Positions 27,931 through 43,594 of a DNA stretch of 64,000 nt are shown here, one piece after another. Source of the stretch: an uncultured Solibacteraceae bacterium. Lineage in GTDB: Bacteria; Acidobacteriota; Vicinamibacteria; Vicinamibacterales; SCN-69-37. Numbering within the stretch: the first letter of the stretch is position 1; each line of letters begins with the position of its first letter. The notes beneath the pieces were generated by a model that worked only from the letters and a program-made list of their open reading frames with translations, had not been told where the DNA came from and made no database searches. The translations under genes were made by a program, and so were the position numbers. The stretch lies in NCBI GenBank assembly GCA_964471115.1, contig CAYYFE010000008.1:34597-98596 (forward strand), written 5' to 3'.

Positions 27931-28158
27931 AGCTCACCATGAAGCACATGAAGGGCCATGGAGGGTGCAGGTCTGTGGGTTGGGCGCCCGGCAACGCCGG
28001 GCGTCGCGGGTGAAGAACACACCGGAAGCAAGAGACCCTGTGGCGCCAGTGCCGTCTCTTGCTCCCGGTGTGTTCTTCGCCCGCGCGTGCCGCCTTCAGC
28101 GGCACCCAACCCTCAGGCATTCCTCCATGGAACTCCATGCCCTCCATGGTGGTCAGCT
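27931..28158 (-). repeat. palindromic four-way-junction element, diverged copy A
   Basis: Outer arms caccatgaagcacatgaagggccatggagg / cctccatggaactccatgccctccatggtgg. Inner GGGTTGGG/CCCAACCC pairing, two local hairpins and a central hairpin (gaagaacacaccggaagcaagagac / gtctcttgctcccggtgtgttcttc). Minus orientation is inferred from the asymmetry of the local hairpins. Confidence 0.75.
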
Positions 28159-28163
28159 CTTGA

Positions 28164-30473
28164 TCAGAAGAACTTGACGCTGTAGGTCACCTTCACGCCG
28201 CGGCCCATCTCGGTCGCCAGGTCCTTGATGAACGACGTGTGCAGCCGCCAGGTCTCGTTCGTCAGGTTGTAGGCCTTGAGCGCCACGGTGTGCGTCGCGT
28301 GGCCGCGCGCGATCAGGTACGACGCGTTGAGGTTCACCACCGTCGATCCGCTGGTCGTCGTCTCGTCACGGAACACGCGGTTCTGCGCGGCGTTGAAGAC
28401 CAGTTCGGGACCGAACTTGAAGTGCCCCACCGGCACGTCGAACTCCAGGCGGGCGGAGAACGGCGGAATGCGCGGCAGCGCCTCGTCGGTGTCGGTCAAC
28501 GACGCCCGCACGTAGCTGGCGCCGGCATGCAGGTGCAGGCGCGGGTGCAGGTCGAAGCTGCCTGACGCCTCGACGCCGATGAAGCGCGCATCGCCCTGGA
28601 CGAACTCCGCCTCGCGCAGCCCGTCGATTTCCTCGTCGTGCAGGTCGAGGAACACGAAGTTGCTGATGTTGTAGGCGAACAGGTTCACCTCGCCCTGCGC
28701 CTTCGCGGCGCGGCTGCGCAGGCTGACGTCGAGGCCGAGCGTGCGCTCGACCTTCAGATCGGGATTGCCAATCTCGAACGCCAGATTGCCGACGTGGGGC
28801 CCGAAGTTGTAGAGCTCTTCGAGCGCCGGCGCGCGCGAGGCGCCGCTCAGATTGACCACGAAGGCGCCATTGGCGCCGATGTTGGTGTGCAGGCCAAACG
28901 AGCCTGAGAGCGCCGTGAAGGACCGGTCGCGAACGGCGGGCGCCTCATGGTCGTCCTCGCCCTCGCCGTGGTCCTCATCCTCCGCTTCCGGACGCGCCGA
29001 CACGTCGTACCGCGTGTGTTCGACCCGTCCGCCGAACTGCAGGCGGAACTTGTCGAACCCCATCTCCTCATAGACGAAACCCGCCAGCGTGTGCTGCAGC
29101 GTCGGCGGCGCCAGCGCCTCGCCGCCCACGGCTTCGAAATCGCGGCGGAACCACTCGGCGCCCATGCGGCCCGTCAGCCGGCCGCGGCGCTTCTGCTCGA
29201 GTTCGGCGCGCAGGGTGGCGGTCTTGTTGGAGAACTGTGTGCCGATCGACTCGATGCCTTCCTCGATCTCGAGTTCGTCGTGCGCGTAGTCGGTGTACGC
29301 AAACGTCAGCTTCGCGGTGTCAAGGAACGCCGACGACAGGTTCCGCAGGCCGATGTCCGCCCGGAAGTCCTTCCGCACCGATGTGATGTCGACCTGCGCC
29401 TCATGCTCTTCTTCACCCTCTTCGTCCTCCTCGTCACCATGACCGTGATGGAAGAGTCCGGCGAACGGAATCCCGAAACGGCCGTCTTCGATGGTGCCGC
29501 CGGCGCTGAAGAACACGCGGCTGCCCACATAGCCGAATCCCGCGCGGCCGTTCTGCAGCCGGCTGGCCGAGTTCTCGATGGTCGTGTCCGGCGTCTTGTA
29601 GTCGCCGCTGCGCCGCGCGCCGCCGCCGGCCCAGATCGTCCAGCCGCCGCTGCCGTACTGGATGCTGCCGTTGGCGCCCACCGACTCGTCCGCGCTGCCG
29701 GCATCAAACGTCAGGCCGCCAAGTGACCCGACAAACGGCGACACGCGGAACGCGTCCTGCGGGCTGATGGCATTCACCACGCCGCCGATGGCGTTGCTGC
29801 CGTACAGCAGCGTCGCGGGCCCCTTGACGACCTCGAGCCGATCGAGGCTGGCGGCATCCACCGACACGCCATGGTCGCCCGACTGGCTGGACAGATCGCC
29901 CGTCCGGATGCCGTCCTTCATGACCAGCACACGGTCGCCGTCAAAACCGCGGATGATCGGCCGGCCGCTGCCGGGCCCGAACGACCGCTTCGAGACGCCG
30001 GGCGCCGTGGCGAGCGCGTCGGCCAGCGACGTGCCGAGGTTCTTCGCAATCTCGACGCCATCAAGACTGGTGATGGCGTTAAACGACTCGAACGTGGTGG
30101 TGGTGCCCGACGCGTTGGCCGTGACGGTCAGATTCTCGTGCACCGTCTCGAGCGACAACACGAAGTCGATCGTGGCGGTCTGACCGGCCGCCACGGTCAC
30201 GGACTTGCGCGCGGCGGAAAAGTGTTCGCGCTGAGCGACCACTTCATAGGTCCCCGGCGGGACGTTCAAGAGTTCAAACGCACCGGTCTCGCCCGTCGTC
30301 GTCGTGCGGCGGGCGCCAATCACGATGACCGTCGCGCCGTGCACGGGCGCGCCGGTCGCTTCAAAGGTCACCTTGCCGGCAATCGTGCCCCCGGCAGTCT
30401 GGGCAAATGCCGCGCTGGTCCAGACAGCCAGCACGGCCGCCGCCAACGCAGCGAAACGAACATACATACGCAT
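28164..30473 (-). CDS. TonB-dependent receptor with N-terminal carboxypeptidase-regulatory-like domain
   Basis: Signal peptide. CarboxypepD_reg-like segment (GTIAGKVTFEATGAPVHGATV...PPGTYEVVAQ). Plug motifs (RGFDGDRVLVMKDG). Beta-barrel ending in terminal F (TYSVKFF). Two His/Asp/Glu-rich loops. Confidence 0.85.
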   Translation of the reverse strand: MRMYVRFAALAAAVLAVWTSAAFAQTAGGTIAGKVTFEATGAPVHGATVIVIGARRTTTTGETGAFELLNVPPGTYEVVAQREHFSAARKSVTVAAGQTATIDFVLSLETVHENLTVTANASGTTTTFESFNAITSLDGVEIAKNLGTSLADALATAPGVSKRSFGPGSGRPIIRGFDGDRVLVMKDGIRTGDLSSQSGDHGVSVDAASLDRLEVVKGPATLLYGSNAIGGVVNAISPQDAFRVSPFVGSLGGLTFDAGSADESVGANGSIQYGSGGWTIWAGGGARRSGDYKTPDTTIENSASRLQNGRAGFGYVGSRVFFSAGGTIEDGRFGIPFAGLFHHGHGDEEDEEGEEEHEAQVDITSVRKDFRADIGLRNLSSAFLDTAKLTFAYTDYAHDELEIEEGIESIGTQFSNKTATLRAELEQKRRGRLTGRMGAEWFRRDFEAVGGEALAPPTLQHTLAGFVYEEMGFDKFRLQFGGRVEHTRYDVSARPEAEDEDHGEGEDDHEAPAVRDRSFTALSGSFGLHTNIGANGAFVVNLSGASRAPALEELYNFGPHVGNLAFEIGNPDLKVERTLGLDVSLRSRAAKAQGEVNLFAYNISNFVFLDLHDEEIDGLREAEFVQGDARFIGVEASGSFDLHPRLHLHAGASYVRASLTDTDEALPRIPPFSARLEFDVPVGHFKFGPELVFNAAQNRVFRDETTTSGSTVVNLNASYLIARGHATHTVALKAYNLTNETWRLHTSFIKDLATEMGRGVKVTYSVKFF

Positions 30474-30601
30474 TGATCAACTCCAAAGGCGGGGCACGCG
30501 CCCGCGCCGAAACAAGACCTGCCGCCGGGGACCGAGGTCCCGGCGCTCCACACCGTACGTCGCGCGGCCGGAACGGCCCGGCCGCGACCGCGATCAGGGA
30601 A

Positions 30602-30949
30602 TCAGAGGGACGAGGGAGGCGCGCGGGCGGCGCCGGGTCGCTGCGTGGCGACGGCGAGTGAGGCGGAGACGTCGACGAGCTGGACGACCGGCGGCGCGTC
30701 CGGGCCGCTGATCGCCGTGACGACGCGGTCGGCCGACCGCATGGTGCGAAGCCAGTGACAGACCTCGCAGTGCGTCTCGTCGCCGGCGTCACCGTCGCTC
30801 ACCACCGGCAACGTGCAGTCGTCAGCGCGAAGCGCAATGGCCCAGTGGGGGTCGTCGTTGAACTGGTGCGCATCACCCAGCCACGGCAGGGCCAGACTGC
30901 CGACCAGGGCAGCCAGGACGGCCAGCGCGGTGATGCGGCGAACCAGCAT
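30602..30949 (-). CDS. hypothetical small membrane-anchored protein
   Basis: ATG at 30949 (MLVRRITALAVLAALVGSLALP). Contains HCEVCHW. Upstream of and co-directional with the TonB-dependent receptor. Confidence 0.35.
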   Translation of the reverse strand: MLVRRITALAVLAALVGSLALPWLGDAHQFNDDPHWAIALRADDCTLPVVSDGDAGDETHCEVCHWLRTMRSADRVVTAISGPDAPPVVQLVDVSASLAVATQRPGAARAPPSSL

Positions 30950-30979
30950 GGTGTCGATTGTAATACGCCGCCGCAACGC

Positions 30980-32836
30980 CTACCGCTGCTGCGCGCGCGC
31001 CAGCAGCTCGACGGCGGCCGGGTCGCCGCCGGTCAGCTGAACCGCGGCTCGGGCGTGTTCGATGGCGGCTGCGGGCTGCCCCGTGTCAATCAACGCGCGC
31101 GCCAGGTTCATGCGATACCCGGCATGACTGGGCGCCACGGCGACCGCCTGCCGGAAGGCATTCACCCCGTCCGCGCCCCGGCCCATCGACATGAGCGCAA
31201 TGCCCAATCCCGTCCACCCCGCACCATCGTCGCGCTGCACACGCAGGTAGGCTTCGAAGTGAGGCACGGCTTCGCCGAACCGGCCCTGCGCGGCGTAGGC
31301 TTCGGCCATCAGCGCGTGCGCCGCATGGTCGGCAGGGGTCACGGTCAACACCTGCCGGGCCATCGAGAGCGAATCCTCGAGACGCCCCGCCTCCGCATAC
31401 CCGCGCGCCAGCAGCAACCGGGCGTCGCGTGCCGTGATCAGGTTCGGCTCGGCGCGCAGGAACGCCTCGAGTTCCGCCATCCCCTCGGCGCGCTGGCCGC
31501 TCGTGAACAACGCGGACCCCAGGTTGAACCGCGCCGGCGGAATCGCCGCCGCAGCCTGTCGCAGGTGGGGAATCGCCTCCACCGCCCGGCCGGCCGTCAC
31601 CAGTTCGGTGCCCACCATGTAATGCGCCGACGGCGTGGGCCAGCGCTCCAGCACCGTCTGCGCCATGCCCAGCGGGGTGGCGTACTCCTTCGTGCGCTGC
31701 ACCGTCACCCACCCGAGTACGGCGATGACCACCGCCGCCGCCACCGCGCCGCCGGCGATGCGACGACGCTCCAGCAGGCGCGCCAGGCCGACCACCGCCA
31801 GCGGCACCAGACCCGCCATCGGCAGATACATCCGGCGTTCGGCGCCCACCTCCGACCCGATCGGCACCAGACTGCTCGTCGGCGCCAGTGTCAGGAACAC
31901 CCACAGCGCGAGGAACCCTGCCTTGGGCCACTTGATCAGCGCCACGACGGTGGTGCCGAGCAGCCCCCCCACCACCAGCGCGTACGGCCACACGCTTGCC
32001 AGCGTGGCCGGCGTGGCCCAGCCGTAATACAGCACCAACGCGTCGGGCCACACGGCCAGGCGCAGGTACCGCACGATCATCTCGGTCTGGTTCAACAGGT
32101 ACGTCCACGTCGAGACATGCGTCGTGGCGAACCCGGCCGACGATGTGCGCGGCACGGTGACCATGAGCAGGAGCAACACGCCCCACGTCGCCACCAGGCC
32201 GAGGTAGAGCTGGCGTCGCTGCGCCCAGGCGCCGGCGAACGATCCGTATCGGAAGACGCGGTCCAGCAGCACCACCGCCACCGGCGCGGTGACCATCGAC
32301 TCCTTGCACGCCATGCCGGCCGCGCACGCCATGACGGCCGTCACGGTCCACGCGGTGCGTCCCGGGGCGTCCCACGCGCGCACCGAGGCGTACAGCGTCA
32401 GCAGGTAACACGCGGCCATCATCAATTCCGTGCGCTGCGTCAGGTAATTGACCGCTTCGGAGTTGAGCGGATGAACGGCCCAGATGCCTGCCACGACGGC
32501 CGCCAACCCGGTGGCGGAGGGTCCCGTCAGGATCCGGCGGGTCAGGCCAAACAGCAGCAGCGCGTTGAACGCATGCAGCAGGACGTTGCCGGCGCGGTAT
32601 CCCCACGGGTCGAGGCCGCCCAGCGCGTAGTTGATCGCAAACGACAGGTTGACCAGGGGGCGTCCGCCCACCGGCGTCTCCGGCGGCGGCACCAGCGCCA
32701 CGTCGGGCGCCAGCGAGCGGATCTGCGGGTTGAACGCCACCGCGCCCACGTCATCGAACATGAACGGGTGGCGCAACCCGCCCGCATACACCGCCGCGAC
32801 CGCGACGACGATCGCCAGCGCCCAGGTCCGGACCAT
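30980..32836 (-). CDS. polytopic membrane protein with C-terminal TPR repeats (PMT/ArnT-like glycosyltransferase architecture)
   Basis: About 10 N-terminal TM segments beginning FMFDD, then TPR-like repeats (AHYMVGTELVTAGRAVEAIPHLRQA... AEAYAAQGRFGEAVPHFEAYL). Confidence 0.6.
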   Translation of the reverse strand: MVRTWALAIVVAVAAVYAGGLRHPFMFDDVGAVAFNPQIRSLAPDVALVPPPETPVGGRPLVNLSFAINYALGGLDPWGYRAGNVLLHAFNALLLFGLTRRILTGPSATGLAAVVAGIWAVHPLNSEAVNYLTQRTELMMAACYLLTLYASVRAWDAPGRTAWTVTAVMACAAGMACKESMVTAPVAVVLLDRVFRYGSFAGAWAQRRQLYLGLVATWGVLLLLMVTVPRTSSAGFATTHVSTWTYLLNQTEMIVRYLRLAVWPDALVLYYGWATPATLASVWPYALVVGGLLGTTVVALIKWPKAGFLALWVFLTLAPTSSLVPIGSEVGAERRMYLPMAGLVPLAVVGLARLLERRRIAGGAVAAAVVIAVLGWVTVQRTKEYATPLGMAQTVLERWPTPSAHYMVGTELVTAGRAVEAIPHLRQAAAAIPPARFNLGSALFTSGQRAEGMAELEAFLRAEPNLITARDARLLLARGYAEAGRLEDSLSMARQVLTVTPADHAAHALMAEAYAAQGRFGEAVPHFEAYLRVQRDDGAGWTGLGIALMSMGRGADGVNAFRQAVAVAPSHAGYRMNLARALIDTGQPAAAIEHARAAVQLTGGDPAAVELLARAQQR

Positions 32837-33343
32837 CTAGCCTTCGGCGTCCGCCGACGACCCGTAGATCGACGGCACCTTCGACCCGAGCGCGCGGAGG
32901 TACGCCGCCAACTGGCCGCGATGATGCACGCTGTGGGTGAGCGTCAGCATCAGGTACTGCACTGCGGGCATCTTCATCTGGCCGAAGAAGTCGACTTCAC
33001 GCGTCAGCACGTCGGGCGGCGCGGCGGCGGCCTGGTCGAGCACCGCGCCGAACTGCCGATTGTAGAAGTCCACGACGCTCTGGACGCTGGTGAACTGCGC
33101 CGCCGCCTTCTTGTTGGCTTCCTCGTCCCACACAAACGTGCCGTTGAGCGCGCTGGTCACGAACCAGACATCGCCCGTGGCGATGTGCGTCGCCAGGTCC
33201 CACGCGGTCCGCGACTTCGCGTCGGGCCGGTAGTCCCGGCCGGCTTCCGTCACGGCGCCGATTACCTTCGCCGTCGTGCCCATTTCCCTGCGCAGCGCGC
33301 CGATCAGCTGCCCCGCCAAGAACGTCGCCTGGTCACCGGTCAT
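32837..33343 (-). CDS. DinB family protein
   Basis: ATG at 33343 preceded by GGAGGA. Four-helix DinB pattern with the HSVHHRGQLAAYLR motif. Confidence 0.7.
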   Translation of the reverse strand: MTGDQATFLAGQLIGALRREMGTTAKVIGAVTEAGRDYRPDAKSRTAWDLATHIATGDVWFVTSALNGTFVWDEEANKKAAAQFTSVQSVVDFYNRQFGAVLDQAAAAPPDVLTREVDFFGQMKMPAVQYLMLTLTHSVHHRGQLAAYLRALGSKVPSIYGSSADAEG

Positions 33344-33399
33344 CGTGGCTTCCTCCCAAAAAACGTCATGGTACCTCAGGCGCTGGTAGACTCGCGCGC

Positions 33400-35805
33400 A
33401 TGCGATCCGCACTGTCGGCGCTGCGGGCCCGGCCGGGACTGACCGCCACGGTCACGCTCTCGCTGGCCATCGGTCTCGCGGCCAACGCCATCCTCTTTGC
33501 CGTCGTCGACGGCGCCATCCTGCGGCCGTTTGCATTCCCCGAACCCGACCGGCTCGTCGGCATCGGCGCGGCCTATCCAAAGATCAATCGCCCGCTGAGT
33601 TTCTTCGAGTCACTCTCAGGGCCGGAATACCTCGACCTCCAGACGGCCGAGTCGCTCGACGACGTGGTGGCCTTCGACCTGGGCAACGAACCGGTGCTGA
33701 TCGGCGACCAGCCCGAGCGTGTCTTCACCGCCTTCGTCTGGGCCGATCCCCTCCGCACCCTTCGACTCCCCGCCTTCGCCGGCCGCGGCTTTACTGACGA
33801 AGAACTGCGCGCCGCGATGCCGGTGGCGATGGTCAGCCACGCCTTCTGGACCACTCAACTCGGAAGCGACCAGACGGCCGTCGGTCGCACGATTCGCGTG
33901 GCCGGCCGGGCACACGTCATCGTCGGCATCATGCCCGAACGCACACGGCTGTGGGACACCGACCTGTGGGTGCCGATGCCGGACCCGGCGGGCAGCATCC
34001 CGCGCAGCCGCCGGCAGTTCAACGTGCTCGCGCGCCTCGCGCCGGATGTGACGCTGGAACAGGCCGGTCAGGATCTGGCCCGCCTCGCATCGTCGCTCGA
34101 TACGCAGCATCGCGCGTCGACGCCCGAGTACGAGGGATTCACGCTGGCGGCGCGGCCCTGGACGCAGATTCAGGTGTGGGGATTCAGCAACGTCACGCGC
34201 ATCGTATTCGGTGCCGCGGCCTTGCTCCTGCTGCTGGTGGCCACCAACCTGGCCAGCCTGCTCGCCGCGCGAGCCGCGACCAGACGCGGCGAGATGGCGA
34301 TTCGCACCGCCCTGGGCGCCGGCCGACGCACACTCGTCGCGCAGCTGAGCCTGGAGACCGCACTGCAGACGACGGCGGGGCTGGTGCTGGGCGTGTTTCT
34401 GGGCTGGCTGGGTATCGAAGCGCTGCCGTCGCTGCTGCCGCCCGGGCTGTTGCCGGCCGACGCGGACATTCGTCTGAGCGCCCGGCTCCTCGGCTACATG
34501 ACCGTGCTGGCCGTCCTCGCCGGCGTCATCGTCAGCCTCGCGCCCACCGTGCAGCTGACGCGCACTGCGCCAGCTGACGTGCTGACCGCGGAAGGCGGCC
34601 GCGGCGGCGCGAGCCGGTCCACGCGGCGGCTGCACCAGGCCGTCGTGGCCTTCCAAGTGGCCACGGCGGTCATCGTCGCCGGCAGCGCCACGATGTTGAC
34701 CGTCAAGACGCTGCGCCTGCTTCAGGTGGAGCGCGGGTTCGACGATGCGAACCTGCTGACGGCACGGTTCACGCTGCCGCTCACCAAATACGATGGGACC
34801 ACCGCGCTGCAATTCTTCGACACGCTGCTGGAGCGCACCCGCGCGCTGCCGGCCGTCTCAGGCGCCACGTTGTCCAATCAGCCGCCGCCCGGTGTGTTCT
34901 CGCGCAGCCAGTTCGAGATTGTCGGCTCGGCGCAGGCGGCCGACGGCCGCACGCCGTCGATGTTCTACTCCACGGTCGGCTCTGACTATCCGGCGACGAT
35001 GGATGTGCGCCTGTTGGCGGGCCGCTGGCTCAACGACGCGGCCGAGGCATCGGCGCCGCGGGAGGTCGTGATCAACCAGACGCTCGCGCAGCGGTACTTC
35101 CCCGGGGAGGATCCGGTCGGCCGGCGCATCCGTGTGCTGGGCGCGGCCAACGACGGCATGCCGGCGGACATCGTCGGCGTGGTGGCTGACGTGCGGAACG
35201 CGGGACTGGTGGGACAGGTGCAGCCCGAGATGTTTGCGAGTGTCCGGCAGATTCCCGATCGGCGCCGGACGCAGGTCTACCTCGTGGTGCGCACGCGGGG
35301 GGAGGCCACGGCCATCCTGCCCGACGTTCGGGCCATCGTCCGGTCGATCGACCCGGGTCAGCCGATGTATGCGATCGGCACCGTGGCCGAGCAGTACGCG
35401 GCCGGCGTCGGCACACGCCGCGCGGCGGCCGGTGTGCTGATGGTGTTCAGCGCGCTCGCGCTTGGTCTGGCCGCGCTGGGAATCTTCGGCGTGTTGTCGC
35501 ACGCGGTGAACGCACGGACGCGCGAGATTGGTCTGCGCGTGGCGCTGGGCGCGGATCGCGCGTCAGTCACGCGGCTCATGCTCGGTCAGGCGTTGCGGCC
35601 GGTGGCGGCTGGACTGATCGCCGGAGTGGCGGTGGTGTTCGGCGCGCAGCAGGCGCTGGCCGCCTGGCTCTACGGCACCACGCCGGAAGCACTGCCGCTG
35701 GCCGGTGTCGCCGGCGTGGTGCTGGCCGTCAGCCTGGCGGCCAGCGCATGGCCGATCCGCCGCGCGGCGCGGCTCAGTCCGCTGGTGGCGCTCACGCGTA
35801 CGTAG
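33400..35805 (+). CDS. ADOP family duplicated permease, no PadR partner
   Basis: 801 aa. MRSALSALRARPGLTATVTLSLAIGLAANAILFAVVDG. FtsX-type bundles. C-terminus is LSPLVALTRT. Confidence 0.85.
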   Translation: MRSALSALRARPGLTATVTLSLAIGLAANAILFAVVDGAILRPFAFPEPDRLVGIGAAYPKINRPLSFFESLSGPEYLDLQTAESLDDVVAFDLGNEPVLIGDQPERVFTAFVWADPLRTLRLPAFAGRGFTDEELRAAMPVAMVSHAFWTTQLGSDQTAVGRTIRVAGRAHVIVGIMPERTRLWDTDLWVPMPDPAGSIPRSRRQFNVLARLAPDVTLEQAGQDLARLASSLDTQHRASTPEYEGFTLAARPWTQIQVWGFSNVTRIVFGAAALLLLLVATNLASLLAARAATRRGEMAIRTALGAGRRTLVAQLSLETALQTTAGLVLGVFLGWLGIEALPSLLPPGLLPADADIRLSARLLGYMTVLAVLAGVIVSLAPTVQLTRTAPADVLTAEGGRGGASRSTRRLHQAVVAFQVATAVIVAGSATMLTVKTLRLLQVERGFDDANLLTARFTLPLTKYDGTTALQFFDTLLERTRALPAVSGATLSNQPPPGVFSRSQFEIVGSAQAADGRTPSMFYSTVGSDYPATMDVRLLAGRWLNDAAEASAPREVVINQTLAQRYFPGEDPVGRRIRVLGAANDGMPADIVGVVADVRNAGLVGQVQPEMFASVRQIPDRRRTQVYLVVRTRGEATAILPDVRAIVRSIDPGQPMYAIGTVAEQYAAGVGTRRAAAGVLMVFSALALGLAALGIFGVLSHAVNARTREIGLRVALGADRASVTRLMLGQALRPVAAGLIAGVAVVFGAQQALAAWLYGTTPEALPLAGVAGVVLAVSLAASAWPIRRAARLSPLVALTRT

Positions 35806-35815
35806 CGCGCGCAGT

Positions 35816-35838
35816 CGCGGCCCGCCGATCGGGCCGCG
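35816..35838. terminator. GC hairpin between convergent genes (possible bidirectional terminator, no U-tract)
   Basis: cGCGGCCC-gccgatc-GGGCCGCg lies between the ADOP stop (35805) and the SOD stop (35839). Confidence 0.3.
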
Positions 35839-36561
35839 CTACGACGCGCTCAATCGCCGGTTGACCTCGGTCCAGTTGACCACGTTCCAGAACGCGCTGA
35901 CGTAGTCGCCGCGACGGTTCTGGTACTTCAGGTAGTACGCGTGTTCCCAGACATCGAGGCCGAAGATCGGTTTGCGGCCCTCGGCCAGCGGTGTGTCCTG
36001 GTTGGCCGTGCTGTGGATGATGAGCTTGCCGCCCTCGTCACTGAGCCACGCCCACCCGCTGCCAAACCGTGACGCGGCCGTCTGGCCGAACAGGTCGCGG
36101 AATTTCTCGAAGCTGCCGAACGTGCCGGTAATGGCCGCCGCGATCGCGCCGGTGGGCGGTCCCCCGGCACTGGGCGCCATCAGGGTCCAGAACTGCACGT
36201 GGTTGTAGTGACCACCACCGTGGTTCTGGATGGCCGTGCGAATGTCGGCCGGCACGGAGTTCAGATTCCGCAGCAGGTCTTCCAGCGGCCGCTTCGCCTG
36301 GTCCGGGTGTTTCGCCAGCGCGGTGTTGGCGCCGGTGACGTAGGCCTGATGGTGGCGCTGATGATGAATCGTCATCGTCTGCGCGTCGATGTGGGGCTCG
36401 AGCGCGGCCACCGCGTACGGCAGCGCCGGCAACGTGAAGGGACCACTTGGCGGCTGGGCCGCCTGCAGGGTCGGGGTATCGGCCAGGGCCGGACGAGGCG
36501 TCGCAACCGCCGCCAGGGCTGCGCCTCCGGCCAGACTGAAGAGTTCTCGGCGTGTCAGCAT
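35839..36561 (-). CDS. Fe/Mn superoxide dismutase with Tat-type signal peptide
   Basis: [18 protein letters not shown] (twin-arginine leader), [10 protein letters not shown] and the [15 protein letters not shown] signature. Confidence 0.9.
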
Positions 36562-36624
36562 GCCCTAATGTAGCACCGCAGCCGCCGGGCCGGCTCGCGC
36601 TACACTGGTCGCACCTCGACACCG

Positions 36625-37737
36625 ATGGCCGACACCCACTTTCGTAAAGCGTTCCTGCTGTTCATGGTGGGCGCGCTCACCATCGGGCTGCTGATCGTGC
36701 TGCGCGGCTTCCTGATGACCATTGTCGTCGCCGCGGTCATGGCGGGCCTGCTGCACCCGGTGCACGCGCGGCTGCGCCAGTGGCTCGGCGGGCGGCAGGC
36801 GCCGGCGGCGGGCCTGACCCTGTTCATCACCTTTCTGCTGATCGTGGGTCCGCTGCTGGGCATCGTCAGCCTCGTCGTGCAGCAGGCGGCCGTGATTAAC
36901 GAAAACGTCCGCCCCGTCGTGGAACGCGTCGTGGAGGAGCCGACCTACCTCGACCGGCTGCTGCGCGGGCTGCCCGGGTACGAACTCATCGCGCCGTATC
37001 GAAGTCAGATTCTCACCACTGCCGGCGACGTCGTGAAGTCGATCGGCGGTTTCCTGATGACGTCGCTGCAGAACACCACGCGCGGCACGGTGTCGTTCGT
37101 GTTTCATTTCTTCATCGCGCTGTACACGATGTTCTTCCTGCTCATCGACGGCGCGGGCATGTTGCGCGCCGTGCTGGATCACCTCCCGCTGCACGCCGAT
37201 GAAAAGGACCTGCTGACCCAACGGTTCATGTCGGTCACGCGCGCGACCATCAAGGGCACCATCGTCATCGGCGTCATTCAGGGATCGCTGGCCGGCCTGG
37301 CGTTCTGGGCCGTCGGCATCCCCAATGCCGCGTTCTGGACGGTCGTGATGGTGGTGATGTCGATTCTGCCGGTGATCGGCGGCGCCATCGTCTGGGTGCC
37401 GGCCGTCATCATCCTGTTCGCCACGGGCGCCGTCGGCAAGGCCATCGGCCTGGCGATCTTCTGCGGCCTGGTCGTGGGTTCGATCGACAACCTGCTGCGG
37501 CCCCGGCTGGTCGGCCGCGACACCAAGATGCACGACCTGGTGATCCTCTTCTCGACGCTGGGCGGCCTGGCCGTGTTCGGACCACTCGGCTTCATCATCG
37601 GCCCCGTGCTCGCGGGCCTGTTCGTCACCGGCTGGCAGATCTTCGCGCTGGCCTACCGCGACGAACTCATCGACGGCACCCCGCGCATCCTCACCGCCGA
37701 CGGCAAGGATGCGGAAGGGATGATCGAGGAGGAGTAG
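36625..37737 (+). CDS. AI-2E family transporter (PerM/UPF0118)
   Basis: 370 aa polytopic protein with typical family organisation and motifs (IPNAAFWTVVMVVMSILPVIGGAIVWVP). Confidence 0.7.
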   Translation: MADTHFRKAFLLFMVGALTIGLLIVLRGFLMTIVVAAVMAGLLHPVHARLRQWLGGRQAPAAGLTLFITFLLIVGPLLGIVSLVVQQAAVINENVRPVVERVVEEPTYLDRLLRGLPGYELIAPYRSQILTTAGDVVKSIGGFLMTSLQNTTRGTVSFVFHFFIALYTMFFLLIDGAGMLRAVLDHLPLHADEKDLLTQRFMSVTRATIKGTIVIGVIQGSLAGLAFWAVGIPNAAFWTVVMVVMSILPVIGGAIVWVPAVIILFATGAVGKAIGLAIFCGLVVGSIDNLLRPRLVGRDTKMHDLVILFSTLGGLAVFGPLGFIIGPVLAGLFVTGWQIFALAYRDELIDGTPRILTADGKDAEGMIEEE

Positions 37738-37795
37738 GGTCCGAGGTCCGAGGGTCCAGGGTCCAGGGTCCGAGGGTCCAGGGTCCAGGGTTCGG
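37738..37795. repeat. tandem 7/8-nt array (GGTCCGAG GGTCCAG GGTCCAG, 22-nt super-unit, about 2.5x)
   Basis: The GGTCC core recurs at spacings 7,8,7,7,8,7,7. Starts directly after the AI-2E stop codon. Confidence 0.9.
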
Positions 37796-37884
37796 ACATA
37801 CCTACCCGATGTGGCAGAAACTGCCATGCGTGCCTGGCTGGACGGTGCATGGTGTCGGCACGGCCCTTGGATCATCTGGGCCGC

Positions 37885-38301
37885 ATGGGAATCGGCAGAC
37901 TCGAGGACCTGCAGGCATTCCAGCTCGCCGTACAGCTGAAGCTGGAAATCTACCGGTTGGTGCGCACACACTCGGAGGCAGGCCAGGATTGGCGATATCG
38001 CGACCAGCTGTTTGATGCCGCGCTTGGAGGCGAATCGAACATCGCAGAAGGGTGGAGACGACACAAGGCCGGCGAGATGTGCCAGTTTCTGCGTTTCGCG
38101 TTGGCGTCACTCGAGGAAACCGGCCGCCGACTGCGTGACGGGGTCGATCGCGGCTACTGGTCGAGCGAAAGCACGCAGGTCGCGCTCACACTGTGCGACC
38201 GCTCAATCGGCGCCACGACCAACCTGTGGAAAAGCCTGCAGCCGTTCATTCGGAGAAACAAAAGGGGCCGGCGAAGCGAAGGCTCCACCGACCCCTCATG
38301 A
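37885..38301 (+). CDS. four-helix bundle protein (23S rRNA intervening-sequence protein / Avd family)
   Basis: ATG at 37885. LEDLQAFQLAVQLKLEIYRL...RDQLFDAALGGESNIAEGWRRH...FLRFALASLEETGRRLRD matches the family pattern (AxxSIxxNIAEG, AxGSxxE). Confidence 0.8.
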   Translation: MGIGRLEDLQAFQLAVQLKLEIYRLVRTHSEAGQDWRYRDQLFDAALGGESNIAEGWRRHKAGEMCQFLRFALASLEETGRRLRDGVDRGYWSSESTQVALTLCDRSIGATTNLWKSLQPFIRRNKRGRRSEGSTDPS

Positions 38302-38304
38302 ACA

Positions 38305-38380
38305 CTGGACCCTGGACCCTCGGACCCTGGACCCTGGACCCTCGGACCCTGGACCCTGGACCCTCGGGACCCCGGACCCC
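38305..38380. repeat. tandem 7/8-nt array (CTGGACC CTGGACC CTCGGACC), exact reverse complement of the 37738 array
   Basis: The GGACC core recurs at spacings 7,8,7,7,8,7,7,9,7. The 22-mer ctggaccctggaccctcggacc is the reverse complement of ggtccgagggtccagggtccag. Confidence 0.9.
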
Positions 38381-39090
38381 TACTTCGTCAGCGCAAACCC
38401 CGTGATCTTGACGTCGAGGTTGTGGCCGATGCGCAGACCGACGATGCCGTCGGTGGTCTTGAGTTTGCCTTCGCCGATGGCTTCGGCCACGGGATAGGTG
38501 GCCACGACCTGGCCGTTGACGGCGCACTCGATGTTGCCGGCCTTGACGCTGAGCGCCACGTCCTGCGTGACGGTGCCGTCAGCGCCCGCCTTGCGAATGG
38601 CGGCGTGTGACCCGGCGCGGCGCGACGTGCCGAGCGTAAACAGGCCGTTGGGCGAACTCGGCGAGAAGCCGCGGACGATGAAGTTGCCGTTGCCGTAGAC
38701 CGAGCAGTAGACCAGACCGGGCTTGGGCGTGTTCAGATCCACGCCGCCGATGAACAGGCCGTACGGGTGCGGGTGATTGCTGTGCTTGAGATGGTTGGAC
38801 TCGGCAAAGGTCGCCTTCACGGTGAAGTCGCCCGTGCCGACGTGCGCGGGATTCCAGTAGATGTTGTTCGGGCCGGCGTTGATCTCGATCGTGTCGCCCG
38901 AGGCGACGAACTTCGAGTCGTTGATGCTGCGGCCCTGCTTGAGGGAGTTGGCATCGATCACGTTGCCCTGCCAGCCCGCGCCGGTGATGCCTCCGCCGGG
39001 CACCACACGATCGAGATCCTGCTGGGCGACCACACTCGAGGCCAACACGGTGACGGCAACGGCAAACGTAGCGGCGTACACAACTCGCAT
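38380..39090 (-). CDS. secreted protein, LamG/DUF1080-like beta-sandwich suspected
   Basis: Signal peptide MRVVYAATFAVAVTVLASSVVAQQ. AGGAG Shine-Dalgarno sequence upstream. Family assignment is tentative and from general pattern only. Confidence 0.5.
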   Translation of the reverse strand: MRVVYAATFAVAVTVLASSVVAQQDLDRVVPGGGITGAGWQGNVIDANSLKQGRSINDSKFVASGDTIEINAGPNNIYWNPAHVGTGDFTVKATFAESNHLKHSNHPHPYGLFIGGVDLNTPKPGLVYCSVYGNGNFIVRGFSPSSPNGLFTLGTSRRAGSHAAIRKAGADGTVTQDVALSVKAGNIECAVNGQVVATYPVAEAIGEGKLKTTDGIVGLRIGHNLDVKITGFALTK

Positions 39091-39141
39091 GAGAGGCTCC
39101 TGCTCTGAAAGAAAGGGAAAATCCGGAGGTTCAGGATACCG

Positions 39142-39915
39142 CTACTTGACCGCGACCTGATAGACCCTGGGCCATTTCTTGCCGGTCACGAAAATCCGCT
39201 TGCCGGCCGGGTCGTACGCGATGCCGTTGAAGACGTCGGCCGAGGGCGTCCGCCGGTAGGGCGGCCACAGGGTGGAGAAATCCACCCAGGCGTTGACGAC
39301 CCCGGTCGACGGATTGATGCGCGCGACGCGATCGGTCATCCAGACATTGGCCCAGATCTCGCCCTCGATCCACTCCAGTTCGTTCAGCTGCGACACCGGC
39401 TGTCCGGCATCAGTCACCCGCAGGCTGCGCAGCACCTTCCTGGTCTTCGGGTCGAGCCAGAAGAGCGTGTCGCTGCCGTCGCTCATGACCAGGCCGCCCT
39501 TGGCGTCATAGGCGATGCCCCAGCCTTCGGTGGCGTAGGAAAACGTGCCCTTCGGGGTGAAGGTCTTGCGGTCGTACACGAAGCCGACGTTGTGCTGCCA
39601 GGTCAGCTGCAGCAGCTCGTCGCCCACCAGCGCGAGGCCTTCGCCGAAGTACTTCGCGTCGATGGCGCGCCGCTGCAGCACCCTGCCGGTGGCGATCTCC
39701 ACGCGGCGGATCGTCGACTCGCCGTGCAGCCCGGTGCTTTCGTAGAACTCGCCATCCACGTAGACGAGGCCCTGCGTGAACGCCTCGGGATCGTGCGGAA
39801 AGGACTGCACGACCGTGAAACTCTGGACCGGCGCGCCGCGCCGCTGCGCGGCCGTCTGTGGCGCAGCGACCAGGCACACGACGAGGGCGAGCAGGACCAG
39901 TGTCAGTCGTGTCAT
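39142..39915 (-). CDS. glutaminyl-peptide cyclotransferase (plant/bacterial beta-propeller type)
   Basis: FPHDPEAFTQGLVY...FYESTGLHGESTIRRVE...GEGLAL...LTWQ...GWG are family hallmarks. Confidence 0.8.
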   Translation of the reverse strand: MTRLTLVLLALVVCLVAAPQTAAQRRGAPVQSFTVVQSFPHDPEAFTQGLVYVDGEFYESTGLHGESTIRRVEIATGRVLQRRAIDAKYFGEGLALVGDELLQLTWQHNVGFVYDRKTFTPKGTFSYATEGWGIAYDAKGGLVMSDGSDTLFWLDPKTRKVLRSLRVTDAGQPVSQLNELEWIEGEIWANVWMTDRVARINPSTGVVNAWVDFSTLWPPYRRTPSADVFNGIAYDPAGKRIFVTGKKWPRVYQVAVK

Positions 39916-39960
39916 GGTGTCCCCAGCCTACCGTACGCGACGGCCGTTCCCGAAGCGGCG

Positions 39961-40701
39961 CTACCGCGCCTGCCAGCTGCCGTACATCGGATTGGGCAGC
40001 ACGAAGTACTTCGCGCCGAACGCCGCGAACGCGGCGTCGGGCTGCTGCCGCAGCGCCTGCGACAACGCCGGGAAATCCAGGATGTTGTCGCCCAGCACGG
40101 CCACCACCTCCACCGGCGCGGACGCGCCAAACGCGCGGCCGGCCGCGACGCTGGCAAACCGCGGATTCTTGTCGGAGGGCTGGCCGTCGGGCCGGCACAA
40201 CATCACATCAAACGGCAGGCCGTGCGCGCGGAACACCTCGCGGGTGTCCTCACACTCCGACTCGAGGCGATTGGTCACGATCGCGATGCGCCCGCCCAGC
40301 GCGGCCACCTGGCGAAGAAACGCCGCGCTGCCTGGGATGGGCACGGCCTCGCGGCGCCGCACCCACGCGTTCCACGACTCCGGCGTGAAGACGAGGCCCT
40401 GTCGTTCGCGCTCGACCTGATACAGCGAGTTGTCGAGCACGGTCTCGTCCGCGTCCAGGATGACCGCCCACGTGCCGGTCTGCCGGTCCCGCACGGCTGC
40501 GGCCACGTGGGTCAGCGCCTGCTGGTAGATCTGCCGCGTCAACGCGGCGTATTCCGCGGACTGACGCACCCACGTCGTTCCGTTGGTGACCGCATGCGCC
40601 GACGGAGCGGCGCCCGGCGCGGTCGCGGCAGGCGGCGTCCGCGCGGCGCACGCGGCGAGGACCGGCACGGCCAGCACACTGACGAACAGTCGTCGAACCA
40701 T
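39961..40701 (-). CDS. HAD superfamily acid phosphatase, class B/C (e(P4)-like lipoprotein)
   Basis: Lipobox VLAAC. DDDD-family motif ILDADETVLDN. C-terminal GDNILDF. Confidence 0.75.
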   Translation of the reverse strand: MVRRLFVSVLAVPVLAACAARTPPAATAPGAAPSAHAVTNGTTWVRQSAEYAALTRQIYQQALTHVAAAVRDRQTGTWAVILDADETVLDNSLYQVERERQGLVFTPESWNAWVRRREAVPIPGSAAFLRQVAALGGRIAIVTNRLESECEDTREVFRAHGLPFDVMLCRPDGQPSDKNPRFASVAAGRAFGASAPVEVVAVLGDNILDFPALSQALRQQPDAAFAAFGAKYFVLPNPMYGSWQAR

Positions 40702-40725
40702 GGCGTCAGCCTACCCTGTTGCCGG

Positions 40726-41136
40726 TCAGCGGTCCACGAGCAGCCCGTCGGCCGACGGCGACTGTGTCACTTCCCAGCGATTGCCGTCCGGATCGGTCAG
40801 CAGGAAGCTGCGCTCGCCCCACGGATGGTCCTTCGGCGGCCCGCTCAGTTCGAACGAATACCGGTCCCGCATCGCGAGCAGACGCGCGTGCGCCGCATCG
40901 ACGTCGGCGACGGTCAGGCCTGTCGATACGCCACGCCGAGAGGCGGCCGCATCGAATGTCGCGGCTGACGCGCCGACCGGCACGAAGAAGGCAATGCGGA
41001 ACTTCGACGGCAGGACGAACTCCGCGAACATGTCGTTCTCGAACGCCGGCGATTGTTCGAACGCCTCCGCGAAGAACCGTGTGATGGACGTGACGTCGGC
41101 CGTCGCGATGACCAGGTGTGAGACCGCCCGCAACAT
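40726..41136 (-). CDS. VOC/glyoxalase family protein
   Basis: ATG at 41136 (MLRAVSHLVIATADV). C-terminal WGERSFLLTDPDGNRWEV is typical of glyoxalase/bleomycin-resistance folds. Confidence 0.7.
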   Translation of the reverse strand: MLRAVSHLVIATADVTSITRFFAEAFEQSPAFENDMFAEFVLPSKFRIAFFVPVGASAATFDAAASRRGVSTGLTVADVDAAHARLLAMRDRYSFELSGPPKDHPWGERSFLLTDPDGNRWEVTQSPSADGLLVDR

Positions 41137-41156
41137 CCGCGCAGTATACTGGCGGC

Positions 41157-41681
41157 ATGTCGCGCGCCGCGTCGGCACTCGGGTGGCTGCTCGCGCTGAT
41201 GCCGGCGATGCTGCTTGCCGCGCAGGACGTCGTGGTGCCGGCCGACCAGATCAACGCGCTCAAGCGCGAGTACACCTTCATCCGGTTTTCGCAGTTGACC
41301 CACCTTGACGCGCCGCTGCCCCCGCGCCACGACCTGGGCAGCGCCTCGCGTCCGGCGCCGTCGGCGTCGCTCATTCCCTCAGGGGCGCGCGCGTTCCATC
41401 AGCGCAAGGTTTCGATTCGCGGCTACGTCGTGCCGGTGGACGTGGACCGCCGCGGGATCCGCGAGTTCATCCTGTCGTCGAACATCGACTCGTGCCACTT
41501 CGGCGTCATCGGCGGCCCCGACGAATGGATCTACGTCACCATGGCCGGCGACCGCCGGATTCCCGCGCCAGGCACACAACCCGTCACCGTGTTCGGCGTC
41601 ATCGACGTCGGCGAACAGGTCAGCGACGGGGTCGTCGACAGCCTGTATCGCATGCGCGGCGAGCGCGTGGCCCTGCACTGA
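41157..41681 (+). CDS. DUF3299-like secreted protein
   Basis: ATG at 41157 with a signal peptide. KVSIRGYVVPVD...EFILSSNIDSCHFG resembles the DUF3299 pattern. Confidence 0.5.
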   Translation: MSRAASALGWLLALMPAMLLAAQDVVVPADQINALKREYTFIRFSQLTHLDAPLPPRHDLGSASRPAPSASLIPSGARAFHQRKVSIRGYVVPVDVDRRGIREFILSSNIDSCHFGVIGGPDEWIYVTMAGDRRIPAPGTQPVTVFGVIDVGEQVSDGVVDSLYRMRGERVALH

Positions 41682-41695
41682 CGCTTGTCACGGTT

Positions 41696-41886
41696 CAACC
41701 ATGGAGTACATGAAGATCCATGGAGAAATACGTGTCCGGGGTTGGGCGCCGCCGGAGGCGGCGGCAGCGAGGCGTGGGGGACGGCTTTCTCGTGTGACGT
41801 CCCCCTCGCCTCGCACGGCCCGGCACAGCCGGGCCCCCAACCCCGGTCCGCATTTTCTTCATGGCCCTTCGTGGCCTCCATGGTGA
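41696..41886 (+). repeat. palindromic four-way-junction element, copy B
   Basis: Runs from caaccatggagtacatgaagatccatggag to cttcgtggcctccatggtga. CCGGGGTTGGG/CCCAACCCCGG pairing, hairpins GCCGCCggaGGCGGC and GGCCCGGCacaGCCGGGCC, and a short central hairpin. Confidence 0.85.
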
Positions 41887-41892
41887 GCTGGT

Positions 41893-42570
41893 TTATCGCC
41901 AGCGGCCACGAGACGGCCCGAAGTCGACGTACTCCGACAACATCGCCATGATGTCTTCCGGCTGCAGGCCGTAGGGCACGCGGTCGCGGAAGCGCAGGTT
42001 GAAACGTGACCCGCCATGCAGGCGCCGGAACGCGACCCGATCTTCCTTCAGCATCGACAGCTGCGCCCGCTCGATGGCGATGCGGTGGTTCTCACGCTCA
42101 CGCCACGCCCGCAGGCCGTCCAGTTCGCGCTCCAGACGACGACGCCGCTCGCGGTTGGGCTCGTTGCGAATCTCGCGTTCGAGTGACCGCTCGCGGTCGG
42201 ACTTCTCGATGAACGGGATGTGCGCGGACGTGTCGGTGTCGTCGAAGAAGGTGCCGTAGCCGCCGCCGTCGAGCTGGACTTCAATGAGGTCCTTCTTCAC
42301 CTTGACGAGGGTCACGACCGCGGTCTCTCCCGCGGGAATCGCGACGCCAAACTGCCGTAGGTGACGCCGATAGTCGTCGGCGTCGAGCGACCGGCGCGAG
42401 TCGGGATGCAGGTTCACCCCTTCGTGGGTGCCGGGCATGTCAATACGCACCGTGACCCGCCGCCCTTCGAGCCAATCCTTCAACCGCGCCTCGCTGGTCG
42501 CCCCAAGCGGAACGACGGCCACCCCCACGAACGCGATCACCACTGCTGCTGAATACCGAAGTCGTGCCAT
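41893..42570 (-). CDS. hypothetical protein with signal anchor and Arg/Glu-rich coiled-coil segment
   Basis: ATG at 42570 (MARLRYSAAVVIAFVGVAVVPLG). No family recognised. Confidence 0.45.
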   Translation of the reverse strand: MARLRYSAAVVIAFVGVAVVPLGATSEARLKDWLEGRRVTVRIDMPGTHEGVNLHPDSRRSLDADDYRRHLRQFGVAIPAGETAVVTLVKVKKDLIEVQLDGGGYGTFFDDTDTSAHIPFIEKSDRERSLEREIRNEPNRERRRRLERELDGLRAWRERENHRIAIERAQLSMLKEDRVAFRRLHGGSRFNLRFRDRVPYGLQPEDIMAMLSEYVDFGPSRGRWR

Positions 42571-42679
42571 ACAAAACGTTCTCCGCCCGCCTGCATTGCA
42601 ACGGCAATGCCAACAGGGCGTCAGAGGGGAAGGTCCGAGCGACCGGCTGACGTTGTCCTCTGGTGAGGGCAAGAGCCAT

Positions 42680-42906
42680 CAACCATGGAGCACATGAAGA
42701 TCCATGGAGGAATACGTACCCGGGGTTGGGCGCCGCCGGAGGCGGCGGCAGCGGGGCGAGGCGCGAGCCAAACGAAAGAAGCTTGGGAGCCGTCAAGGAT
42801 GGCTTCTTTCGTATTGGCTCGTGCCTCGCCCCGGCTCGGCCCGGCACAGCCGGGCCCCCAACCCCGGTACGCATTTCTTCATGGCCCTTCATGGCCTCCA
42901 TGGTGA
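42680..42906 (+). repeat. palindromic four-way-junction element, copy C
   Basis: Same termini and hairpins as copies B and D. Central hairpin is ggggcgaggcgcgagccaaacgaaagaagc / ggcttctttcgtattggctcgtgcctcgcccc. Confidence 0.9.
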
Positions 42907-42941
42907 AAGAGCTCTGGCACCGCGATTGCTACAACGAACGC

Positions 42942-43334
42942 ATGTCAGACGTCCGCCGAAGCCCCGTCTCGGCCGCCATCATCGGCGCCGCCATCGAAGT
43001 TCACCGGGAGCTCGGCCCCGGCCTCCTCGAAAGCGCCTACAAGACCTGCCTGGTTCATGAACTGCGATCCAGAGGCGTGCTCGTTGAGCGCGAGGTGCCG
43101 ATTCCGGTGGTGTTCAAGGGTCAACACATGGACTGCGGTTTTCGGGCAGATCTGCTCGTGGCGAACGAGGTCCTGTGCGAGGTCAAGAGCGTCGACCGCC
43201 TGCTTCCGGTTCACACCGCGCAAGTGTTGACCTACCTGCGGCTGAGTCAGGCCTCGCAGGCGCTTCTGATCAACTTCAACAGCGCAACGCTGCTGGCGGG
43301 CCTGAAGAGCTACCTCAGACCCGGGACGATGTGA
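42942..43334 (+). CDS. GxxExxY protein (PD-(D/E)XK-like small protein family)
   Basis: ATG at 42942. IIGAAIEVHRELGPGLLESAYKTCLVHEL contains the G-x-x-E-x-x-Y signature (GLLESAY). CGFRADLLV...EVKSV is PD-(D/E)XK-like. Confidence 0.8.
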   Translation: MSDVRRSPVSAAIIGAAIEVHRELGPGLLESAYKTCLVHELRSRGVLVEREVPIPVVFKGQHMDCGFRADLLVANEVLCEVKSVDRLLPVHTAQVLTYLRLSQASQALLINFNSATLLAGLKSYLRPGTM

Positions 43335-43370
43335 CCCGTCCACCATGGAGATGGGAAATCGATGACCCAT

Positions 43371-43594
43371 CAACCATGGAGCACCTGACGATCCATGGAG
43401 GAATACGTATCCGGGGTTGGGCGCCGCCGGAGGCGGCGGCAGCGGGGCGAGGCACGGGCCGGGCGAAAGAAGCTGCCGAGCGATCAAGATAGCTTCTTTC
43501 GTCCGGCCCGTGCCTCACCCCGCTCGGCCCGGCATAGCCGGGCCCCCAACCCCGGTCCGCATTTCTTCATGGCCCTTCATGGCCTCCATGGTGA
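43371..43594 (+). repeat. palindromic four-way-junction element, copy D
   Basis: Same termini and hairpins as copy C. The central hairpin differs from copy C by compensated changes (gggccggg / tccggccc versus gagccaaa / tattggctc). Confidence 0.9.

Follow-up and report, generated by a model that had tools for sequence, protein, structure and literature searches.

Several families of short non-coding intergenic repeats, including ERIC/IRU (enterobacteria), Correia/NEMIS (Neisseria), RUP, and Nezha, are MITEs, or miniature inverted-repeat transposable elements, that have terminal inverted repeats and whose strands can both fold into a long hairpin; they are present or absent depending on the strain and are often cotranscribed with their neighbors. 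Here, we describe four copies (A to D) of a palindromic element in a 64-kb stretch of DNA (64,000 nucleotides of contig CAYYFE010000008.1, assembly GCA_964471115.1, from an uncultured Solibacteraceae bacterium; hereafter, the window). These copies probably represent a gene-less, MITE-like family of palindromic DNA in Vicinamibacterales-type Acidobacteriota and their relatives, made of derivatives or partners of units that carry a gene for a GxxExxY protein.

Three other bodies of work bear on such a family. Repetitive extragenic palindromic (REP) sequences measure 20 to 40 nt and carry a GTAG or CGTC head (PMC3733652). In Coxiella, the 23S rRNA intervening sequence (IVS) holds a small open reading frame (ORF) in an RNase III-cut stem containing tandem heptamers, and rRNA IVSs are regarded as selfish, with an unresolved mobility mechanism and origin for which a mobile-element hypothesis has been proposed (PMC4990558). 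In Xanthomonas, GGGAATC heptamer arrays occur in convergent pairs and have been treated as G-quadruplex repeats (PMC4692102). A survey of PD-(D/E)XK proteins lists the function of GxxExxY/PF13366 as unknown (PMC3424549), and neither the element nor its association with GxxExxY was described in the literature that we searched on GxxExxY/PDDEXK_3, acidobacterial MITEs, and nuclease-associated MITEs.

A covarying core between conserved heptamer arrays

The four copies had been called in a first-pass annotation made from the letters of the window, and all of them were found in place with motif counts far above chance. The junction motifs GGGTTGGGnGCCGCnGnAGGCGGC and GCCCGGCnnnGCCGGGCnCCCAACCC each match four times in the window versus 0.02 and 0.00 expected, and the terminal motif CCATGGAG..TGAnG..CCATGGAG matches eight times, once per end, versus 0.00 expected. 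The core span given for the copies was right, as was the proposal that copy A is oriented opposite to copies B, C, and D, but the ends had been set too far inward, since copies A, B, and C actually reach further out (Table 1), and many ends carry an additional CAAGAGC..TTCACC.

Relatives were gathered by a scan of a genome collection, a scan of metagenomes, and motif searches in the retrieved DNA. More than 20 further copies with unrelated flanks (~25 relatives in all) were recovered from metagenome contigs (soil, sediment) and from one Vicinamibacterales metagenome-assembled genome (MAG). This MAG was the only source of relatives in the genome-collection scan, whose other 11 matches are not relatives (two were read and lack the element, and the remainder failed the motif scans). 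The source sample itself is a biofilm metagenome, the contigs and loose ends of which show extra copies with other flanks.

Element length is 190 to 250 bp for the window copies and 190 to 281 nt across the family. From the left, the consensus reads (CAAGAGC..)TTCACCATGAAG-nn-CATGAAG-nn-CCATGAAG and, after a spacer, GGGTTGGG, followed by the GCCGCC hairpin and the long hairpin; its right part consists of the GCCCGGC hairpin, CCCAACCC, a spacer, and three CTTCATGG units ending with CATGGTGAA. The terminal inverted repeats, 35 to 50 nt long, begin with (CAAGAGC)TTCACCATG, and 46 distinct aligned ends have TTTCACCATGAAG..CATGrAG..CCATGGAG and the terminus TTTCACCATG in common.

Every window copy folds into the four-way junction that the first-pass annotation had drawn, made of an outer stem (~50 bp), the 5′ GCCGCC hairpin, a long central hairpin, and the 3′ GGCCCGGC hairpin. 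The minimum free energy of the window copies, all four of which returned this architecture, lies between -140 and -174 kcal/mol (z = -11.7 to -15.6 versus shuffles). Copies C and D are the closest relatives of one another, with arms 89 to 94% identical, and their central-hairpin differences, GAGCCAAA/TATTGGCTC versus GGGCCGGG/TCCGGCCC, are genuine double changes.

Across the family, the compensatory substitutions suspected from these copies proved to be strong covariation. RNAalifold applied to 18 cores (alignment A3) gave a four-way junction with 54 pairs, 37 of which show double changes; in the central hairpin, double changes affect 29 of the 31 pairs. Paired cells reached 95.3% (76.5% in shuffles), double-change cells numbered 164 (41 in shuffles), and the covariation score was 0.495 (0.147 in shuffles), values that none of 500 shuffles matched, while slid-alignment controls were ~40% paired. 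The junction helix is swapped wholesale in some copies (GGACCTGA/TCAGGTCC, GGGTCTGG/CCAGACCC, GGGTTGGA/TCCAACCC), and compensated variants of the 3′ hairpin occur in relatives (CCAAGG/CCTTGG, CCAGGC/GCCTGG, CCCAGC/GCTGGG).

The ends show the opposite pattern to the core, in which the sequence is free and pairing is retained. Each end bears three CATGRAG heptamers with starts 9 to 10 nt apart, i.e., about one helical turn. These heptamers pair in every fold, the 2- to 3-nt spacers between them forming internal loops, and a comparison of the 46 ends shows conserved heptamers separated by variable spacers. Conserved heptamers, non-complementary spacers, and helical phasing thus fit repeated protein-binding sites on duplex DNA.

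Several variant forms were also encountered. Four copies from different contigs (L012, ~7340-7420; L028, ~1790-1830 and 2500-2580; L133, ~2200-2260) carry a small palindrome, GACGTCGGGTGTCTTTTT ... AAAAAGACACCCGACGTC, at the tip of the central hairpin, which has the appearance either of a nested insertion or of a tip that one subfamily has in common. A truncated copy (L080, 44-160) has its left array and 5′ hairpin but breaks off halfway through the central hairpin, passing directly into coding-looking DNA unrelated to the element. In metagenome run X6, a contig of single-copy depth that resembles window 27965-28120 holds a core-deleted variant of an A-like element, its two terminal arrays being separated by just 29 nt (GCGGCATCCAACCCGCGCCTGACTGGCAT). 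Finally, viral-labelled contigs (L209 from IMG/VR, 4987-14964, and L148, L163, L173, L175, L176, L192, and L199) contain 85- to 100-nt hairpins consisting solely of the two terminal arrays and a short loop. L209 has six left-array matches, all on one strand, and the two that were read through lie between phage-like genes on that strand. No GxxExxY gene is present in these viral-labelled contigs.

Presence/absence at a gene end

The elements are intergenic, most often lying 3 to 17 nt from a stop codon, and can fill the whole spacer between convergent genes. Closeness to stop codons had been noticed in the first-pass annotation as a position downstream of a same-strand gene; the closeness stands, but it does not distinguish a same-strand gene because copies A and B lie between convergent genes, equally near both stops.

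We found an empty site for copy B. In run X6, which samples a strain ~92% identical to that of the window, a 1,309-nt contig (depth 42) joins window position 41681 to 41894 with only "AC" between them, thus running the DUF3299 gene directly into the convergent 225-aa gene. The identical joint is present in a second metagenome (X5). Only 1 nt separates the two stop codons in the X6 and X5 strains, a gap that the element fills in the window. Moreover, a minor X6 variant has an element at site B with a different left flank. Runs X2 to X4, from the same study as the window, contain the same strain and showed no polymorphism. For the A and C/D sites, contigs of the relatives end within the repeats. 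Terminal inverted repeats, dispersed copies, the empty site B, and ends common to the gene-carrying units argue for the non-autonomous mobile element at gene ends that had been one of two suggestions at first reading. In other words, this is a short non-coding sequence with terminal inverted repeats, many dispersed copies, and presence/absence at one site, as are MITEs.

Association with GxxExxY genes

The first-pass annotation had named GxxExxY as the gene before copy D; it missed the link between the elements and that gene, which has copy C on one side and copy D on the other. All GxxExxY genes in the metagenome and MAG loci examined adjoin elements or their ends, and phased arrays stand beside GxxExxY genes in nearly all cases seen across several phyla, mostly on both sides. 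At three sites (the C/D locus of the window, L028, and L137), the gene has a sister element on each side, the two being in direct orientation. In L012, it is 25 nt from an element, the locus ending before the other side; in L136 and L139, one flank of the gene carries a solo end and the opposite flank a whole or short element; and L134 has just an end fragment, 3′ of the gene. In L138, L140, L141, L142, L143, and L144, the gene lies directly inside matching arrays. L138 begins with an end, followed by the junction with the GGCCCGGC hairpin, then the promoter and the gene, and finally the GGCCGCC hairpin and another end, so that the gene occupies the place of the central hairpin in gene-less copies.

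A blind inverted-repeat score between the flanks of the gene reached 15 to 36 for 9 of 12 genes; positions drawn at random from these loci averaged 8.9, with a 99th percentile of 12. We also inspected four plasmid records of cultured bacteria for arrays around the gene. In Bacteroides finegoldii (L213, 1423-1902), where the gene follows radA, TTCACCACAGAGG-type arrays are found on both sides, as are arrays in Bernardetia. In Sphingomonas parapaucimobilis (L212, NZ_CP155749.1, 1467-1932), fabD and fabG flank the gene, and the only array found was upstream; Gemmatirosa showed an array hairpin on the downstream side. Gene lineages differ in their repeat unit (CATGAAG, CATGGAG, CACGGAG, CACAGAG, CGCAAAG), and the TTCACC/TTAACC terminus is retained. 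No other gene type was seen between TTCACC-type ends in the loci examined.

The 130-aa protein was modeled with confidence (predicted local distance difference test score [pLDDT] of 90.9) in a PD-(D/E)XK fold, and its D70, E80, K82 catalytic triad is kept in 50 homologues. Foldseek matches were weak (template modeling [TM] score of <0.5) and were led by nucleases of the PD-(D/E)XK type (Cas4, lambda exonuclease, splicing endonucleases, and the Hjc resolvase). Searches with the protein gave no match among PDB sequences, none in PHROGs, and one marginal match in PADLOC. The family is very large, one search returning 7,987 homologues at an E value below 1e-10. Upstream of the gene, the motif TGGCAC-N5-TTGCT is the sole match to the sigma-54 consensus in the window, and the same motif is found 11 to 14 nt before the start codon in L028, L134, L136, L137, L138, L139, and L142. 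This placement suggests that the GxxExxY transcript would be leaderless and sigma-54 dependent.

Strand balance and competing explanations

The first-pass annotation had also proposed a structured RNA, taking G-T oppositions in the stems as G-U pairs. In the 18-core alignment, pair changes are almost all from one Watson-Crick pair to another; one-sided G-U states were counted in 18 cells, a number close to that of A-C mismatches, and G-U pairs account for 3 to 4% of all pairs. Over 20 full copies, 65 G-U pairs are counted on the forward strand and 79 on the reverse strand, and the better-folding strand is the forward one in 12 copies and the reverse one in 8. G-U pairs being rare and balanced between strands, the G-T oppositions give no indication of RNA. 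Orientation shows no relation to the flanking genes, with 8 convergent, 4 divergent, and ~8 tandem settings and both orientations represented, and the supposed rule linking orientation to gene ends fails on this mixture among ~20 copies. An intrinsic terminator was ruled out, no U-tract or terminator-like site being present at any element end, which is followed by A-rich or mixed sequence. The Rfam scan that had been recommended matched no known RNA family: nothing was found at gathering scores, and an E-value scan returned almost exclusively generic long-hairpin microRNA precursor models, each well under its gathering score. Altogether, strand balance in G-U pairs and folding, free orientation, and the lack of a U-tract and of an Rfam match leave a strand-specific structured RNA (3′ untranslated region [UTR] stabilizer, terminator) unsupported, and place the complementarity in the DNA itself, or in both strands alike. 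A broader version, in which selection acts on the fold of a cis-acting structured RNA (3′ UTR stabilizer, bidirectional terminator, or RNase III site) that has spread by duplication and has the DNA repeat merely as its gene, seems to us rather unlikely. The very stable fold and strong covariation would suit it, as would the 8 of ~20 copies between convergent genes, the start of most copies 3 to 17 nt past a stop codon, the cutting from RNA by RNase III of the closest analogue, the 23S rRNA IVS (PMC4990558), and the hairpins reduced to terminal inverted repeats in the spacers of a phage-like contig, with its six one-strand left-array matches. However, besides the absence of strand bias, gene-linked orientation, U-tract, and Rfam match, four copies lie between divergent genes, the heptamers are conserved with unpaired spacers, which is the reverse of what pairing selection would leave, and copy B is wholly absent from a related strain. 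For genome scanning, the lesson is that very strong "compensatory" covariation is possible in palindromic DNA repeats and alone is no indication of an RNA.

The pairs of sister elements around the gene also raise the question of a recombination site, either attC-like or comparable to IS26 in a translocatable unit. The GxxExxY gene and one element would then form a circle that integrates by crossover into a resident element to give element-gene-element, and the reverse reaction would leave a single element. The direct orientation and mutual closest relationship of the flanking elements in the window, L028, and L137 fit such a scheme, as do promoters starting 5 to 8 nt from the element end at these three loci and GTTGGGY and RYYYAAC-like words in the junction helix. 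Suggestive, too, is an X6 relative with element ends at the positions of C and D and a depth of 0 to 7 over the GxxExxY gene versus ~36 in the flanks, although the X6 contigs break inside the repeats and do not show the linkage. Nevertheless, we hold this scheme to be very unlikely: the word order is opposite to that of attC (AAC first, then GTT), elements of 190 to 280 nt with long repeat arrays do not resemble attC, copies A and B are solitary between housekeeping genes without a cassette array, no recombinase candidate was found among the selected window ORFs that were scanned, and many GxxExxY genes lie directly inside one array pair with no whole element nearby. That the repeats encode a small protein is scarcely credible. 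Copy C does hold an open frame that spans the element from ATG at 42685 to TGA at 42904-42906, and copies B, C, and D are offset in length by 36 and 3 nt, both multiples of three; but the palindromic ends by themselves account for equivalent ATG and TGA on both strands, substitutions in the variable regions are paired and not codon-like, and the lengths of 16 complete copies fall in all three classes modulo 3, with no conserved frame.

Proposed model and its weak points

The mobile-DNA reading that we favor, i.e., a gene-less MITE-like family tied to GxxExxY units, would involve two modules. The terminal inverted repeats of phased CATGRAG heptamers are predicted to be sequence-specific protein-binding sites on duplex DNA, and the core (junction helix, GCCGC hairpin, variable hairpin, and GCCCGGC hairpin) may act at the DNA level as a cruciform or a folded single strand. 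The gene-less elements would be deletion derivatives or partners of GxxExxY units with the same type of array, and the GxxExxY nuclease could recognize the arrays or the junction in trans and mobilize the elements. If transcribed through, the long duplex might in addition serve as an RNase III-type processing site, as in the 23S rRNA IVS.

Several points weigh against this model. The nuclease activity of GxxExxY is a prediction, with structural matches at TM scores below 0.5, and no transposase of a known class (DDE included) was found between the repeats at any locus examined. The first-pass annotation had called for both an empty site and a target-site duplication; the former was found, but no duplication was recognized at empty site B or in the flanks of the 46 ends, the AGAGC words beside many ends being apparently part of the repeat and not a target duplication. 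There is a single empty site, in a relative ~8% diverged, and it may be a precise deletion in that relative. Two architectures coexist, with the gene either inside the arrays or between whole elements whose outer ends face the gene, and one simple transposon model does not explain both. Elsewhere in the window, a 23S_rRNA_IVP gene and a PadR regulator gene also lie within inverted heptamer arrays (see below); such arrays are therefore not nuclease specific and may act at the RNA level. Lastly, most copies were found by a pattern in the 5′ hairpin, so the conservation of this hairpin is partly an artifact of the search.

A wider hypothesis, possible but doubtful in our opinion, would be that GxxExxY proteins are the nucleases of an unrecognized class of ~0.5-kb mobile elements with inverted phased-heptamer arrays, accompanied by gene-less palindromic derivatives, as a counterpart of the RAYT/REPIN system (RAYT, REP-associated tyrosine transposase) and probably in the same class as the ORF-bearing IVSs of rRNA. 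Mobilization would then rest on a minimal PD-(D/E)XK enzyme recognizing the arrays and a junction-shaped DNA fold. Whatever their mode of spread, the elements may offer a route to the function of the widespread, uncharacterized GxxExxY family. Its genes sit in conserved operons (with fabD/fabG in Sphingomonas, after radA in Bacteroides), in nearly all cases beside phased arrays, and these arrays, together with gene-less relatives that show at least one difference in presence between strains, turn an annotation blank into a concrete and testable system.

Feature coordinates and other repeats in the window

Coordinates of the elements, of their parts in copy C, and of the associated gene are collected in Table 1. 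The minus label of copy A means that its GCCGC hairpin comes first when the minus strand is read. Copy C has the 225-aa gene (41893-42570, minus strand) on one side and the GxxExxY gene on the other.

Table 1. Positions of the palindromic elements, their parts, and the GxxExxY gene in the 64-kb window
Feature	Coordinates	Strand	Description
Copy A	27928..28163	-	Whole spacer from the Peptidase_M19 stop (27925-27927) to the TonB-dependent receptor stop (28164-28166, minus strand)
Copy B	41682..41893	+	Stretch missing from the related strain; terminal inverted repeat to terminal inverted repeat, 41696-41886
Copy C	42670..42917 (approx.)	+	Including terminal CAAGAGC / GCTCTGG extensions
Copy C left terminal repeat array	42680..42712	+	CCATGGAG, CATGAAG, CCATGGAG; starts 9-10 nt apart; spacers unpaired in the fold
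Copy C junction helix, 5′ strand	42722..42730	+	GGGGTTGGG, partner 42857-42865 (CCCAACCCC)
Copy C 5′ hairpin	42732..42749	+	GCCGCC-GGAG-GGCGGC; sequence conserved family-wide
Copy C long central hairpin	42750..42836	+	Sequence variable among copies, pairing kept
Copy C 3′ hairpin	42838..42856	+	GGCCCGGC-ACA-GCCGGGCC
Copy C right terminal repeat array	42873..42917	+	CTTCATGG, CTTCATGG, CTCCATGGTGAA plus AGAGCTCTGG extension
Sigma-54-type promoter motif	42915..42930	+	TGGCAC-N5-TTGCT; ends 11 nt before the GxxExxY ATG; overlaps the last bases of copy C
GxxExxY protein gene	42942..43334	+	130 aa; PF13366 PDDEXK_3, TIGR04256; between copies C and D
Solo left-terminal-repeat fragment	43340..43356	+	CCACCATGGAGATGGG; between the GxxExxY stop codon and copy D
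Copy D	43371..43594	+	Between the GxxExxY gene and the DUF1028 gene

Other arrays of short repeats occur in the window. A gene for a 150-aa four-helix-bundle protein (37849-38301; PF05635 23S_rRNA_IVP, TIGR02436) lies inside inverted GGGTCCA/GGGTCCG arrays (window 37736-38357), the arms of which are 58 nt long and 95% complementary, the left array starting at the stop codon of the upstream gene. This PF05635 gene has the architecture of an rRNA intervening sequence, yet it is sited between protein-coding genes. Inverted CAGTGCG/GAGTGCG arrays (21834-21910 and 22452-22528; 77-nt arms, 87% complementary) enclose a PadR-family ORF (within 21843-22433) located upstream of an 880-aa MacB/FtsX-type permease gene, and a separate 8-mer tandem array (GCCACCTC/GCCATCTC, 21410-21530) adjoins a second PadR gene (21508-21792, minus strand). 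Finally, positions 8332-8791 and 13012-13728 contain two direct repeats, one of 300 nt (96% identity) and one of 155 nt (84% identity), that are 4.7 to 4.9 kb apart and are probably paralogous genes.

Comparison with known systems

Like the hairpin MITEs, the window elements are short, gene-less, multicopy, intergenic, terminally inverted-repeated, and variable between strains. They differ in that no DDE transposase partner and no target duplication were found here, that their ends consist of three helically phased heptamers with a conserved three-hairpin core between them, and that the sole gene found between matching ends encodes a 130-aa PD-(D/E)XK protein. The resemblance to REP/REPIN-RAYT systems resides in a palindromic intergenic family that flanks a small single-domain gene of nuclease type and has many gene-less copies elsewhere. 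However, RAYTs are HUH/Y1 proteins (IS200-type TnpA) and the gene here is of the PD-(D/E)XK type (PF13366/TIGR04256); in contrast to REPs, the elements are 190 to 281 nt long, with heptamer arrays and a TTCACC head; and, unlike RAYT genes, GxxExxY genes are usually multicopy and inserted at many loci.

Integron attC sites (e.g., the Vibrio cholerae repeats) are likewise imperfect palindromes by small genes, flank the gene as direct repeats, and fold as a single strand. Their core words are reversed relative to ours (RYYYAAC ... GTTRRRY in attC versus GTTGGG...CCCAAC here) and their length is 57 to 141 nt versus 190 to 281 nt with repeat arrays; moreover, copies A and B stand alone between housekeeping genes and not in a cassette array by an integrase gene. 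The Xanthomonas GGGAATC arrays are similar in being tandem heptamers arranged as inverted intergenic pairs, but their study drew no link to enclosed ORFs or to gene-less palindromes (PMC4692102).

The closest described architecture is that of the ORF-bearing IVSs of 23S rRNA (Coxiella, Leptospira, Xanthomonas S23p / PF05635). All copies of our element lie between protein-coding genes and not in rRNA, the enclosed gene is GxxExxY instead of that of a four-helix-bundle protein, and the four window copies are themselves ORF-less, with a three-hairpin core. The GxxExxY units nevertheless have the hallmark of this class, a small ORF enclosed by inverted tandem-repeat arrays, within a long stem with tandem heptamers in its arms, and our findings bear on the origin of the ORF-bearing rRNA intervening sequences.

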